From positions 950 through 64,949 of the forward strand of contig CAMJIH010000002.1 in the NCBI GenBank assembly GCA_946405785.1: a stretch of DNA of 64,000 nucleotides, read 5' to 3'. Source of the DNA: an uncultured bacterium. GTDB lineage: Bacteria; Patescibacteriota; Gracilibacteria; Absconditabacterales; Absconditicoccaceae. The stretch's first letter is position 1. Each line of letters opens with the position of its first letter. The notes under the pieces were generated by a model. It was not told the origin of the DNA, made no database searches, and was given only the letters and a program-made list of their open reading frames with translations. Shown in pieces: positions 1 through 64,000 of the stretch. A program made the position numbers and the translations under genes.

Positions 1-1040
1 TTGATTGTTCATCTGGAAGTGAAGGTAAAGTGTATGAATGAGTTATTGATTTCAAAATTAATGAAGTAAACTTAGCTAATCTATCAAAGACAAAAACTCA
101 TATTACAATGAATATTGCAACTCCAGATTCAGCATTTGAAAAATCATTTATTCCAAACGATGGAGTAGGATTAGCAAGAGAAGAGTTCGTAATTTCATCT
201 TATATTAAAGTTCATCCATTAGCATTACTTCACTTTGATGAATTAAAAGATGAAAAAGTTAAGAAAGAAATCGAGAAAATGACAGCTGGATATAAAAATA
301 AGGCAGATTTCTTTATTGATAAACTAGCTGAAGGAGTATCAATGATTGCTGCAGCAGTATATCCAAAGAGAGTTATTCTTAGACTTTCAGATTTTAAATC
401 TAATGAATATGCAAATCTTCTAGGAGGTAAAGATTTTGAACCAAAAGAAGATAATCCAATGATTGGATGGAGAGGTGCTTCAAGATATTATTCAGAACAA
501 TATAAAGAAGCTTTTGGACTTGAATGTAAATGAGTACTTAAGGTAAGAGAAGAAATGGGATTAACAAATCTTGATGTTATGATTCCGTTCCCAAGAACTG
601 TTGAAGAAGCTAAAAAAGTTATTGCAACTATGGCTGAATACGGATTAAAACAATGAGATAACGGATTAAAAGTTATGGGTATGTGTGAAATCCCTTCAAA
701 TGTAATTCTTGCTGAGGAATTCCTAGAAGTATTTGACGGATTTAGTATTGGATCTAATGATCTTACTCAATTATTACTTTGAGTAGATAGAGATTCAGAA
801 CTTGTAGCATCTGTATATGATGAAAGAAATCCAGCAGTAAAGAAAATGATTAAACAAGTTATTGATGTTTGTAATAAGAAAGGAAAATATGTTGGTATTT
901 GTGGACAAGCTCCATCAGATTACCTAGATTTCGCAGAATTCCTTGTAGAATGTGGAATCCAATCAATGTCTCTTAATCCAGATACAGTTATTAAAACAAC
1001 ATTAGCAGTAGCTGAATTAGAGAAGAAATTAGGTAAATAA
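1..1040 (+). CDS. ppsA: Phosphoenolpyruvate synthase (pyruvate, water dikinase), C-terminal part; 5' end lies outside the window
   Basis: Frame 3 is continuous through TGA codons at 39-41, 531-533, 654-656 and 780-782. It shows PEP-utilising-enzyme motifs: [51 protein letters not shown][TGA]VDRDS and GICGQAPSD. Ends in TAA at 1038-1040. Confidence 0.88.
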
Positions 1041-1058
1041 TAACAACTAAATTAACGA

Positions 1059-1082
1059 GCAGCTCTAATGAGCTGCTTTTTT
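1059..1082 (+). terminator. Rho-independent terminator after ppsA
   Basis: 7-bp stem gcagctc / gagctgc with loop taat, followed by tttttt. Confidence 0.7.
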
Positions 1083-1112
1083 GTTTTACTAAATAATATT
1101 TTTTTGCTAAAT

Positions 1113-1141
1113 TTGACAAAATAAAAAATTTAATTTATAAT
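1113..1141 (+). promoter_or_regulatory. Consensus sigma70-type promoter
   Basis: TTGACA, 17 nt spacer, TATAAT. It lies 36 nt upstream of the ATG at 1177. Confidence 0.65.
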
Positions 1142-1176
1142 TAATGAAAGAAAATTTTACCATTTAACTTAAAAGA

Positions 1177-59802: not shown

Positions 59803-60104
59803 TATAATATGATATAACAAAGAGCTAAAATAATACCAATAACAACTCAAATAATAAATGATTTGTTAAGGATTGTTTGTTCAACATTTAAATCATAAGT
59901 TGAAGGATTCTTTCATTGCCATATTATCGCAATTAGGTTACCAATCATAAGCCCACAAAATACCAAGTATCCAGGCATAGCGATTTCTTTTACCACTCAA
60001 AAAGCCCCTTCTCATAGAATAATATCTCATCTAACAAGAAGGATTCACATGATAATAGTGAAACAATAGAAAAATCATCTTAACACTTGAAATAATACTA
60101 CCAT
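59802..60104 (-). CDS. Small membrane protein, 100 aa
   Basis: It has three hydrophobic spans. Its stop codon shares one nt with the ATG of the lipoprotein gene (TAATG). Confidence 0.5.
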
Positions 60105-60249
60105 ATTCAAGTATAGAAAGTAAATTACAATAAAAAATAAGTTTTTATAAGGAAAAATCAAGTTTTAATTATATATTAAAAACAATTTGATAAGTTAAAG
60201 TAAATTGCTATATTCTAAACTAATAAATTTTAAATAAATAGATGAATTA

Positions 60250-61578
60250 ATGGCTGAATTACGTCCAAGTGGATTTCCTGAATATAGTCCATCACAACAA
60301 TTGGTTTTTGATAAATTAAAAAGAATTATAGAAGATAACTACGAATCTTTTTGATATACGCATATTCAAACTCCAGCAGTAGAAAGGAATTCAGTACTAC
60401 TTTCTAAAAATTGAGAAGAAACAGGAAAACAAATTTTTTGATTATATTGAATGGCTCAATGAAAGGATGATCTTAAAGAATATGGACTTCATTTTGATCT
60501 AACAGTTCCTTTTGCTAGATATACATTGGATTGGGAAAGTCAGCTTACATTTCCTTTTAAAAGATATCAGATTCAACCTGTTTGGAGAGGCGAAAGAGCT
60601 CAAAAATGAAGATATAGAGAATTCTATCAATGTGATATTGATGTTATTCGAAAATGAGAAAAAAAATATCTTTATTATGATGCTGAAATTATTGCAACAC
60701 TCTGAAAAACATTAGAAAATATTTTTGAATCATGTGAGATTAAAGATACGCCAATATTTCACATTAGTAATAAAAAATTAATAAAATCTTTTCTATGAAG
60801 TATAACATCAAATGAAGAAGAATCTCAGAAAATATCAAATCTTATTGATAAGATTAATAAGATATGAGAAGATAATTTTAAGGCGACATTAAAGGAAGAT
60901 TTATGAATTTCTGATGAAATAATCAATAAAGTTCTTTCTTTTATTAACTTTAAATCAGATTCAATAAATGATTTGGATCAATTGAAAAATATTTGTTCTG
61001 CTCAAGAATATCAAGAATGATTGGAAGAATTAAAAGAAGTTCTTTGATATCTTTCTCAATTAAAATTATCTATGAATCTTTCTTTTGAACGAACAATTGA
61101 TTTAAAAATTATAAGGGGGTTGGATTATTATACATGAACGATTTTTGAAGCGAATTTTAAATCTGATGAGTGAATCTGATCAATATGTTGATGATGAAGA
61201 TATGAAAATCTAACATGATATATTGATCCTAAGAAGAATGATTACTGCGGAGTTGGTTGAAGTATTTGAATTAGTAGAATCTTATGAAAAATTTTTGAAG
61301 AAAAGGAAGAAAGTAAAAAGACGATAGCAGATTATCTTTTCCTTAATTTTGATGAAACATTCTCAGACATTATTAATCTTTCAGCCGATTTTGCTAAAAG
61401 AGGAGAAAGCATCGAAATTTATCCAGAACCTGAAAAACTTTGAAAACAATTTTGATACGCTGATAAAAAATGAATTCCATATGTTATTGTTCTCGGAGGA
61501 TGAGAAAAGGAACAAGGAATTTATAAAATTAAGGATATGAGAACTTGAGAAGAAAAACAGGTAAAAATAGGAAAATAA
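60250..61578 (+). CDS. hisS: Histidyl-tRNA synthetase
   Basis: Motifs: [43 protein letters not shown], and CGGGRY with three consecutive TGA codons (61189-61197), then GGSIG. Product is 442 aa. Confidence 0.9.
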
Positions 61579-61721
61579 TTCTGTAATAGATAGCGACATA
61601 TATAAATTAAAAATGTCAAGCTCTGATTTTGATTTTTGCTTGCGAAACAAACTGGGATTTTTATTATCTTGATGAAAAAAAGAATAATTTTCTATTTTTC
61701 TTTTATCATTAAGAATTGTTT

Positions 61722-64000
61722 ATGGACGAAAAAGAATTACAAGAGAATCAAGAAGCTGAAAATGAAAACAATGAATCTAATGATTCAAATGATTCTCAAG
61801 AAAATCCAGCTTCAGAAACTCAACAAGAGCTCTCTTTCACTCCAACAGGGGAAAAGAATTTAATAACAAACTCTGTAGAAAAAGAAATTACACAGTCATA
61901 TATCGACTATGCAATGTCTGTTATTATTGCTCGTGCACTTCCTGATACAAGAGATTGATTTAAACCAGTATTAAGAAGAATCCTTTTTTGAATGGCTGGA
62001 ATGAATAATTTCTTTAGAGAAAAACATAAAAAATCAGCGAGAATTGTGTGAGAAGTAATGTGAAAATATCATCCACACGGAGATTCTTCAATATATGAAG
62101 CTATGGTAAGACTTGCTCAACCATGGTCTATGAGATATCCACTAGTTGATGGACAAGGTAACTTTGGTTCAATCGACTGAGATGGAGCTGCTGCTATGAG
62201 GTATACAGAAGCAAGATTAACAAGAATTGCTGAAGAAATGTTAGCAGATCTTGATCAAGATACTATTGATTGGAGAGACAACTTTGATGGTTCATTGAAA
62301 GAACCTATTATGCTTCCTACAAAGTTCCCTAACCACCTTTGTAATGGTACAATGGGTATCGCTGTAGGTATGGCAACCAATATGGCTCCTCATAATCTAA
62401 CTGAAGTTATTGATGCAACTTTATTACTTCTTCATAAAGAAGGTAAAGAAGAAATAACTACAGATGAAAATGGTTCAGAAATTAAACAAAAAGTTTCTGT
62501 AAGTATTGAAGAAATTATGGAAATAATCAAAGGTCCAGATTTCCCTACATGAGGTATGATTTTTGATTCAAATAATATTCTTGAAGTATATAAGAAAGGT
62601 AAATGATGAATTGTTGTTCGTGGTAAAACTCATGATGAAGTTTATGACGGTGCTCATGTTATCGTTGTAGATGAAATCCCATACCAAGTAAACAAAGCTT
62701 CATTAGTACAAAAAATCTGAGAATTAGTAGTTGAAAAGAAAATAGAAGGTATTAATGATATCCGTGATGAATCAAATAAAAATAAGATTAGAATAGCTAT
62801 TTACTTAAAGAAAGGTGTAGATCCAGATTTAGTATTAGTTCAATTATTTAAATTAACTGAACTTCAAACTAACTTTAATCTTAACAATGTGTCACTAGTT
62901 GATAATGGTACACAACCAAGACTTCTTAATATTAAGGATCTTTTAATGGAATTCGTTACATTCCGTAGATCTGTAGTATATAGAAGATCAGTATTCCAAT
63001 TAAATAAAGCTAAAGATAGATTACATATCTTAGAAGGTTTAAAGAAAGCTATTGATATTATCGATGAAGTAATTGATACTATCAAGAAATCTGAATCTAA
63101 AGCAGAAGCAAGAACTAATTTGATGGAAAGATTCGGTTTCTCAGAAAAACAAGCTGAATATATCCTTCTTATGAGATTACAATCATTGGTTGGTCTAGAA
63201 ATTCAAAAGATTTCAGATGAAATTGAAGAAAAATTAAGATTAATCGATGAACTTGAACATATTATTGGAGATCCAGAAAAACTAGATGAAGTAATCGAAA
63301 AAGAGTTAATCTACATGAAAGATAAATACTGAGACGAGAGAAGAACAGAATTATCTAACGATTTAAGTGTATATAATATTAGTGGATCATTGAAAGAATT
63401 CCAAAAAGCTGCTGATAAAGTTAAGGAAGATGTTATTTGTTGGATAGGAAATGATTTCTCTTTAAGAGTATTATATCAAACAAGAATCCAAAATATTCCA
63501 GAAGAAACATTAGATCTTATCTATACACACAACCAAGATAAGTTAATTATTATTACAGATATCGGTGAATTAGTTGTTCAAAGATTGAAAGATTTTGGTC
63601 AATTCAATATGGCTAAACCAGCTATGAATCTTAAAGAACACTTTGGATTAAAATGAAAGATAGTATTTGCTAAAACATTACATTTCCAATATGATTACTT
63701 AGTATTCTTAACAAACAAAAACAGTATTAAGAAAGCTAAGAAGGAATTAGTATTAAGTTTCAAAAAATTCCCAACAACAATTATGTCACTTGAACCAGGT
63801 GAAACAATTGTAAGAGTTCTTCCAGTTAATGATTGAGATAATATCTGAGTTCTTTCAAAGCAAGGATGGATGTTATTATTCAAATCTGATGATGTAAGAG
63901 CTATGGGTAAGACTGCAGGATGAGTAAAAGCTATCGAACTTCAAGAATGAGATGAAATAGCAAATATGTTCTTGCACAACGATGAACCATTTATCTTAAT
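61722..64000 (+). CDS. gyrA: DNA gyrase subunit A; 3' end lies outside the window
   Basis: Motifs: YAMSVI..RALPD.RDG.KPV.RRIL, the HPHGD...Y quinolone-resistance-determining region, MRYTEARL, and [13 protein letters not shown]. The frame links track ORFs 61716, 62196, 62889 and 63390. Confidence 0.92.

Follow-up and report, generated by a model that had tools for sequence, protein, structure and literature searches.

Which genetic code has to be applied to the DNA of an uncultured bacterium is the question raised by a stretch of 64,000 nucleotides on contig CAMJIH010000002.1 of assembly GCA_946405785.1, which in its full length is referred to as the window throughout this study. Every gene call in this window hinges on the meaning of the codon UGA (TGA in the DNA), as genes are shattered into short pieces if the standard bacterial code (table 11) is used. 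An original prediction, made from the DNA sequence, had assigned TGA to glycine throughout and the window to a bacterium of the SR1/Gracilibacteria type within the candidate phyla radiation. In our analysis we have followed up on this assignment and found that it is not the only departure from the standard code, since CGA and CGG behave as codons for tryptophan. We consider it highly probable that the right translation of the window is that of table 25, in which UGA encodes Gly and UAA and UAG are stops, amended by the reading of CGA and CGG as Trp, and that the DNA is part of an Absconditabacteria chromosome.

Results

UGA is a sense codon across the window

The role of UGA is reflected in the lengths of the open reading frames (ORFs), which were counted from stop to stop in all six frames and compared under alternative sets of stop codons. 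Under table 11, a single ORF reaches 300 residues and none 500, whereas the treatment of TGA as sense codon restores 28 ORFs of at least 300 and 13 of at least 500 residues, the longest of which extend over 1565, 1488 and 1195 residues. Equivalent treatment of TAA (two ORFs of at least 300 residues, none of at least 500) or of TAG (one and none) as controls fails to restore long ORFs, which shows that the effect is specific to TGA.

With TAA and TAG as sole stops, 51 genes were called, which encompass 20009 codons and render 93.8% of the window coding. In these, TGA occurs 781 times in frame (39 per 1000 codons), distributed over 46 of the 51 genes, and the genes end with TAA in 41 and with TAG in nine cases. 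The ends are identical to those of orthologues in 98 of 118 comparisons and no more than five residues apart in 117 of them, and they also coincide with the ends of NCBIfam profiles. Among the window genes with testable ends, none was found where TGA would act as stop. Collectively, UGA is a sense codon across the window and termination proceeds only at UAA and UAG. This is in line with the original prediction, which had described the fragmentation of genes under the standard code and the exclusive use of TAA and TAG at gene ends and had proposed the re-calling of genes under other codes, where the distribution of ORF lengths now favours TGA as sense codon. The identities it had assigned, save for that of TsaB, were recovered as well, with NCBIfam supporting ppsA (C-terminal part), mraY, thrS, murF, mnmA, pheS, metG and pilT, in addition to a gene of the YebC family, while leuS and hisS were identified against solved structures in the PDB and gyrA by tblastn.

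UGA is read as glycine

The amino acid that corresponds to UGA is indicated by codon usage. GGN codons make up 28 of 1000 codons on their own and 67 if TGA is included, the corresponding numbers for TGG being 11 and 50. Since GGN alone falls far below the need for glycine and TGG alone is already at the normal level of tryptophan, TGA is assigned to glycine, of which it constitutes the commonest codon (781 TGA compared to 563 GGN, or 58% of Gly codons). Equivalent evidence is provided by conserved positions of proteins, for which we have used comparison sets of 28 GyrA and 16 non-redundant LeuRS sequences of standard-code organisms, all without recoded TGA, and columns with at least 80% conservation. 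On such columns, the TGA codons of the window coincide with glycine in 19 of 20 cases in LeuRS and in 7 of 11 in GyrA, amounting to 26 of 31 combined, and with tryptophan in none, and GGA and GGT codons show the same proportions of glycine. In leuS of relatives, TGA coincides with glycine at 551 of 592 occurrences on such columns.

A comparison with the best PDB homologue of each protein, where TGA opposite glycine was tallied by eye, has provided a similar picture. Glycine faces 20 of 27 aligned TGA codons in LeuRS, 15 of 26 in HisRS and 2 of 3 in PpsA, and, in fragments of the respective proteins, 5 of 6 in PilT, 8 of 12 in MraY and 7 of 9 in MnmA. This amounts to 57 of 83 in the six comparisons together, with tryptophan found opposite one TGA, at a variable position. 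The relationship extends to functional motifs. All three glycines of the Walker A motif of PilT are encoded by TGA (Table 1), and the triple TGA of HisRS is located opposite (S/G/A)-G-G preceding RY in solved structures. In PpsA, the TGA at 780-782 in TQLLL-X-VDRDS corresponds to the Gly of TQL.LG.DRDS in solved structures. The TGA at 8551-8553 on the reverse strand, in the sequence HHLLEYK-X of MraY, corresponds to the Gly of HH.EL.G, which in aligned structures is part of the motif F/YEL(C/K)-G-W, and TGA is also found opposite Gly in the motifs DG.DGLA and FMGD.GS.ALGG of the same protein. Finally, in the PP-loop of MnmA, the TGA at 20851-20853 in S-[TGA]-GVDS aligns with SGGVDS. In all five proteins, the glycine positions named in the original prediction agree with solved structures, and the coordinates given there for the motifs of PilT, HisRS, PpsA and MraY proved exact.

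Two details of that prediction require correction. The motif GPG[TGA]FT, which had been ascribed to TsaB, is present in the protein encoded at 56997-57605 on the reverse strand but reads [TGA]-P-G-[TGA]-F-T, and the assignment to TsaB has no profile support. Even if translated with TGA as Gly and CGA as Trp, this protein has no match in Pfam or NCBIfam, and only its segment [TGA]-P-G-[TGA]-F-T-N-L-R-V-[TGA] resembles what we take to be the TsaB motif. Similarly, the Trp in IGWRGASRY of PpsA, cited as an example of a conserved position, is not invariant and is replaced by Phe in one of two PpsA structures.

The equivalence of TGA and GGN is tested most directly by codon exchange with relatives of 60-100% protein identity, which were fetched via LeuRS, HisRS, ThrRS, PheS and gyrA and which cover 12006 codon sites of the window. 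At 497 covered TGA sites, GGN is found in at least one relative at 213 and TGG at one, and 192 of the 344 covered GGN sites show TGA in a relative. Since the change from TGA to GGA, a transversion in the first position, dominates and the transition from TGA to TGG is near absent, we regard TGA and GGN as synonymous. The TGA positions are also conserved across many independent assemblies, and at all 15 TGA columns of gyrA in the window, no codons other than TGA and GGN occur in the 14 closest SR1 relatives. The same exchange is found within the window itself, in an in-frame coding repeat (Table 1) whose successive units contain GGA, GGA, TGA and GGA at position 10 and GGA, GGA, GGA and TGA at position 15, as anticipated from the claim that equivalent positions of this repeat are written either way. 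Together, these results show that UGA is an ordinary glycine codon and bear out the choice of glycine over tryptophan that had been made from the sequence.

CGA and CGG are read as tryptophan

A second feature that distinguishes the code of the window concerns CGA and CGG, which are found 27 (1.3 per 1000) and eight times (0.4 per 1000) in 20009 codons, compared to 525 occurrences of AGA. In relatives, TGG is present at 11 of 21 covered CGA sites and at 5 of 6 covered CGG sites, hence at 16 of 27 together, and an Arg codon at none of either. Conversely, CGA or CGG appears in a relative at 52 of 150 covered TGG sites and at one of 390 covered AGR or CGY sites, the latter showing TGG at one as well. 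On conserved columns of the LeuRS proteins of relatives, Trp is found opposite CGA in 62 of 62 and opposite CGG in 7 of 7 cases, and in GyrA of 52 SR1-type genomes, none of the 89 occurrences of CGA or CGG on conserved columns is located at an Arg column. Other SR1 genomes contain TGG at six of the seven GyrA columns with CGA or CGG and TTY, encoding Phe, at the remaining one.

Individual sites are in accordance with this assignment. The conserved Trp of LeuRS that is written as CGG (Table 1) is matched by Trp in all 16 standard-code LeuRS and by TGG in eight relatives, and the CGA at 14694-14696 on the reverse strand, close to the N-terminus of the YebC-family protein, is located opposite the Trp of an (H/K)W motif in all four aligned solved structures. 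Relatives contain TGG at both CGA positions of thrS (9945-9947 and 10668-10670) and at both positions of hisS (60649 and 61090), and two relatives contain it at the CGA of mnmA (21658). At the HisRS site 60649-60651, TGG was found in four relatives, and 120 database homologues have W in 99 and R in 21 cases.

CGA and CGG are thus interchangeable with UGG and constitute Trp codons, leaving AGA, AGG, CGU and CGC for Arg. Table 25, where all codons besides UGA are standard, does not hold for the window owing to CGA and CGG, and since both behave as Trp, a translation by this table would misplace Arg at most of 35 positions. When all 64 codons were screened in GyrA and LeuRS, further reassignments were not convincingly indicated, with the few rare codons that were flagged relying on small and non-independent samples.

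Several positions appear to carry Trp as a consequence of the altered code. Column 820 of the LeuRS alignment, the second residue past KMSK in a KMSKS-type loop, contains CGA in 27, TGG in seven and CGG in one of the sequences across the SR1 clade, with the window showing TGG at 28840-28842. At this column and at columns 926 and 1014 of GyrA, the SR1 clade has Trp codons and standard-code bacteria have Lys, Arg or Gln. A less clear case is column 863 of GyrA, with Trp codons in the clade and Met or Gln in standard-code bacteria. Judged by these alignments, such clade-wide Trp columns look like former Arg codons that would have turned into Trp through reassignment.

Lineage and relatives

Protein identities, for GyrA determined from the best tblastn segment and from blastp at the level of ORFs, place the window next to SR1 bacteria. 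The identity of GyrA amounts to 95-96% with an uncultured metagenome-assembled genome (CAMOEC01), to 87-91% with several other genomes of this kind and with the SR1 bacterium human oral taxon HOT-345 (87-89% for HOT-345 itself) and to 75-76% with the closed SR1 genome RAAC1_SR1_1. One contig from a metagenome (L081) is virtually identical to the window, and contigs of the same species with lengths of up to 288 kb are on record for proteins P0122-P0138. Taxonomy places HOT-345 in Candidatus Absconditibacteriota, and homologues of HisRS, ThrRS and PheS, where named, are labelled either 'candidate division SR1' or 'Candidatus Absconditabacteria'. With SR1 HOT-345 as the closest named relative, the lineage is therefore Absconditabacteria, which narrows down the SR1/Gracilibacteria type of the original prediction. 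We interpret the window as part of the chromosome of an uncultured representative of Candidatus Absconditabacteria (SR1) that is related to HOT-345.

The boundary of the recoded clade is apparent in LeuRS, where all proteins with at least 59% identity are encoded with 4-43 in-frame TGA codons and those with 45% identity or less without any, except for one locus with a single TGA, which was excluded from the comparison set. In a check of synteny, GTDB relatives (L001-L052) had hardly anything in common with the window apart from gyrA, and metagenome relatives were therefore fetched via LeuRS and HisRS. Loci of ThrRS and PheS relatives are rearranged as well and permit single-gene comparisons only. 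The share of TGA among Gly codons varies widely even between close relatives, as illustrated by gyrA, where the HOT-345 group has 4-7 TGA codons and certain other relatives have 41-49, and by a thrS of 86-88% identity (locus L164) that contains none. Another SR1 relative (L165), whose ThrRS is 81-83% identical to that of the window, harbours a Cas12a (Cpf1)-Cas4-Cas1 locus at 15303-21887 of L165, on an 861 kb scaffold and a few kb away from thrS.

Decoding machinery

A scan for transfer RNA (tRNA) genes found none in the 64 kb of the window, and a search with Rfam returned no match, including no selenocysteine insertion sequence (SECIS)-type element and no 16S ribosomal RNA gene. No release factor was detected among the 20 window proteins scanned with NCBIfam or Pfam, and 64 kb are uninformative on the genome-wide presence of prfB. 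Among relatives, locus L006 contains a tRNA(UCG) at 6341-6411, directly upstream of a tRNA-Trp(CCA) at 6444-6518. Read with an acceptor stem of 7 base pairs, this tRNA(UCG) has the pair G1:U72, the discriminator G73 and U20, hence no A20, and it shows with G73 and the lack of A20 the published hallmarks of a Trp-type tRNA. Another relative (L163) encodes a tRNA-Arg(GCG) at 2186-2259.

These features can be placed in the context of the literature. SR1 genomes share near-identical tRNA(UCA) genes, with G1:C72, C2:G71, G3:C70 and U73 as properties of a tRNA-Gly (PMC3812714). Gracilibacteria that have kept UGA as stop possess release factor 2 and are devoid of the tRNA with UCA anticodon (PMC8629427). 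The same study lists G73, the absence of A20 and A/G1:U72 as characteristics of the Trp-type tRNA(UCG) and tRNA-Arg(GCG) as the species that reads CGU and CGC (PMC8629427). By analogy to this clade, UGA in the bacterium would be read by a dedicated additional tRNA-Gly with the anticodon UCA, and release factor 2 would be lost. CGA and CGG would be decoded by a tRNA(UCG) whose identity has presumably switched from Arg to Trp, and tRNA-Arg(GCG) would continue to read CGU and CGC.

Genes and other features of the window

The features with relevance for the assignment of codons are compiled in Table 1.

Table 1. Coordinates of genes, motifs and codons in the window (TGA and CGA counts refer to in-frame codons)
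Feature	Positions	Strand	Remarks
ppsA, C-terminal part	1-1040	+	gene start upstream of window; 3 TGA
mraY	8437-9528	-	25 TGA
thrS	9870-11747	+	17 TGA, 2 CGA (first bases 9945, 10668)
YebC/PmpR-family gene	13953-14705	-	13 TGA; CGA at 14694-14696 (residue 4)
murF	15696-17075	-	24 TGA
mnmA	20827-21864	+	18 TGA; CGA at 21658
Odd CGA	24611-24613	+	relative CAG (Gln)
Odd CGA in class-V aminotransferase gene	26849-26851	+	relatives CAA, CAA, AAA
leuS	26959-29496	+	29 TGA
CGG in leuS (residue 226)	27634-27636	+	conserved Trp of Q-W-.-(L/I)-(R/K)-I-T
Odd CGA	36046-36048	+	relatives CAA, CAG, GAG
Odd CGA in 1433-residue protein	40346-40348	-	relative CAA
pheS	45022-46044	-	19 TGA
metG	49955-51490	+	18 TGA
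pilT	51673-52785	+	13 TGA
PilT Walker A GPTGSGKST	52099-52125	+	TGA CCA ACA TGA TCA TGA AAA TCA ACA; all three Gly = TGA
In-frame coding repeat	54601-54777	+	45-base period (15 codons), 3.9 copies, 93% matches
hisS	60250-61578	+	28 TGA, 2 CGA (first bases 60649, 61090)
HisRS motif C-[TGA][TGA][TGA]-R-Y	61186-61200	+	TGT TGA TGA TGA AGA TAT
gyrA, 5' part	61722-64000	+	continues past window end; 15 TGA in 762 codons

Besides these features, the window encodes three very large proteins of 1555 (2514-7181, forward strand), 1192 (17227-20805, forward) and 1433 residues (39710-44011, reverse), with 41-60 TGA codons each, the last of which has an orthologue of 59% identity (L167) that carries PKD domains. 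A protein of 652 residues at 46122-48080 on the reverse strand belongs to the OLD family of nucleases, with an AAA_21/AAA_15 ATPase and an OLD-like TOPRIM domain, and has an 83%-identical orthologue in a relative (L166). Nucleases of the OLD family are a type of protein that is often linked to phage defence. The gene at 29513-30280 (forward) matches the Pfam family Patatin, and its neighbour at 30290-31081 (forward) looks paralogous, with the starts of both proteins, TISXGGAKG and VISXGGMRG, similar by eye. Finally, a gap of 526 bases between divergent genes (23683-24208) has no match in Rfam and holds only a Ser/Thr-rich ORF of 103 residues (23715-24026) without TGA, whose relatives of 98%, 75% and 56% identity indicate weak conservation.

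Discussion

The assignment of UGA to glycine and of CGA and CGG to tryptophan has to be weighed against several observations that do not readily agree with it. Roughly a quarter to a third of the TGA codons face residues other than Gly in distant homologues, a property that is shared by GGA and GGT, and 15 of the 35 CGA and CGG sites have no informative relative. A tRNA(UCA) is absent from the window and from the scanned loci of recoded relatives, and the Trp-type tRNA(UCG) was found only in a relative with 85-89% identity in GyrA. As the window is devoid of tRNA genes and 64 kb do not permit a verdict on prfB, the roles of tRNAs and release factor proposed above are derived from the literature. 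The most specific discrepancy concerns four CGA sites where relatives carry codons for Gln, Lys or Glu, but never TGG. As a consequence of these residues, the four sites (24611, 26849, 36046 and 40348) fit Arg better than Trp. For the second of them, the equivalent residue in SufS of E. coli and B. subtilis is presumably Arg or Lys. The four codons may have originated from recent transitions of Gln codons to CGA at tolerant sites or from recent missense changes, and they could also be a hint of residual ambiguity. That the switch of CGA from Arg to Trp is not clean or finished in this organism, with ambiguous decoding as Trp and Arg or a late transitional state, appears to us rather unlikely.

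The same four sites would be accounted for by table 25 in its plain form, where UGA is Gly and CGA and CGG have remained Arg, as Gln, Lys and Glu are the usual exchange partners of Arg, and this table is the official label for the code of SR1 and Gracilibacteria. We nevertheless regard plain table 25 as very improbable in light of the exchange of CGA and CGG with TGG at 16 of 27 covered sites and never with Arg codons, the single exchange with CGA or CGG found among 390 sites of Arg codons, the use of CGG or CGA at invariant Trp positions of LeuRS and YebC, the location of CGA and CGG opposite Trp at 69 of 69 occurrences on conserved LeuRS columns of relatives and the Trp-type tRNA(UCG) in one of these. 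A translation of UGA as Trp (table 4), which is found in mycoplasmas and certain endosymbionts of insects, would be equally compatible with the GC content of 28.8% and with the restored ORF lengths as table 25, and Trp is indeed found at many TGA positions in public protein databases. At the TGA columns of HisRS, 120 database homologues (P0001-P0120) contain G 1717 and W 860 times and no other residue, and solved structures contain Gly. We have rejected the database Trp as evidence for a reading as Trp, since these residues reflect gene calling of the relatives' own TGA codons by table 4. As public proteins of the clade are mostly such translations, their W does not testify to Trp and may mislead the inference of codes from homology. 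Table 4 would also raise Trp to 5.0% of residues and leave just 2.8% for Gly. It is refuted by this composition, by the conserved columns, where none of 31 window TGA codons coincides with Trp and 26 do with Gly, and by codon exchange, with TGG at one and GGN at 213 of 497 sites, and we consider it hardly conceivable.

Even less credible is the proposal that TGA is not decoded at all and results from pseudogenes, read-through, selenocysteine or sequencing artefacts. Nothing beyond the fragmentation under table 11 speaks for this view, which is already refuted by the abundance of TGA in 46 of 51 genes, by the preservation of its positions across many independent assemblies, by its concentration on catalytic Gly motifs and by the lack of SECIS-type or other Rfam elements in the window. 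Alternative codes occur in some phages, and the window contains several very large proteins of unknown function besides the OLD-family nuclease, which would both be compatible with a recoded phage or another mobile element instead of a cellular chromosome. However, the window encodes a core set of cellular proteins, including five aminoacyl-tRNA synthetases (leuS, thrS, metG, hisS and pheS), gyrA, murF, mraY, alr, mnmA and ppsA, whose orthologues reside on contigs of SR1 chromosomes, which measure up to 864 kb, and on a closed genome of 1.18 Mb. The gene content therefore identifies the DNA as part of a chromosome, and its origin from a phage or mobile element is extremely improbable.

The translation by table 25 with CGA and CGG as Trp has practical value, as it provides the correct proteins of the window. 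Table 4, which was used for most public entries of the clade, would place Trp at 781 positions of glycine, and table 25 appears to put Arg in place of Trp at most of the 35 CGA and CGG codons, including the conserved tryptophans of LeuRS and YebC. Our results also offer independent support at the level of codons for a change of CGA and CGG to Trp that had previously been predicted by computation. As far as the 2021 study of Shulgina and Eddy tells, we know of no experimental confirmation of this prediction.

Both reassignments are already known for the clade, as had been noted in the original prediction for UGA, which is read as Gly in table 25, and the window displays no new kind of genetic code. 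With respect to CGA and CGG, Absconditabacteria of a GC range of 0.26-0.38 were predicted by Codetta to have changed both codons from Arg to Trp (Shulgina and Eddy, 2021, eLife, PMC8629427). The window shares with this code a GC content of 0.29, the rarity of CGA and CGG, AGA as main codon for Arg and the location of CGA and CGG at conserved Trp, to which its relatives add the tRNA(UCG) with G73 and without A20 (L006) and the tRNA-Arg(GCG) (L163). It differs in the kind of evidence, which in our case consists of the exchange of individual codons with TGG between closely related genomes, and in the four CGA at positions of the Gln, Lys or Glu type, which misfit a clean reassignment.

The change of UGA to Gly is also found in a sister group, the Gracilibacteria (BD1-5/GN02), whose name is carried by some public records of the window's clade, although its nearest named relatives are SR1/Absconditabacteria. 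A study by Hanke from 2014 is said to report UGA as Gly in this sister group. The same assignment is attributed to Rinke (2013, via PMC8629427), whereas the reassignment of CGA is reported for Absconditabacteria, with only some Gracilibacteria showing CGG as Trp (PMC8629427). With the code of Mycoplasma and Spiroplasma (table 4), the window has in common the low GC content and the use of UGA as sense codon rather than stop. It is distinct in the amino acid, which is Gly and for which Trp is unsupported. In organisms with table 4, such as mitochondria and symbiotic alphaproteobacteria, a mutated tRNA-Trp reads both UGA and UGG, whereas SR1 bacteria have added a tRNA-Gly(UCA) (PMC3812714). The closest correspondence is found to the SR1 genomes themselves, including HOT-345 and RAAC1_SR1, where UGA is described as a further codon for glycine (Campbell et al., 2013, via PMC3812714). 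Common to both are the low GC content, the shattering of genes under table 11, the presence of UGA at conserved Gly and the stops TAA and TAG. While gyrA of the HOT-345 group contains 6-7 TGA codons in a nearly full-length gene, compared to 15 in the 762 codons covered by the window, this is not a difference in kind but reflects the heavier use of TGA in a code that SR1 bacteria have in common.

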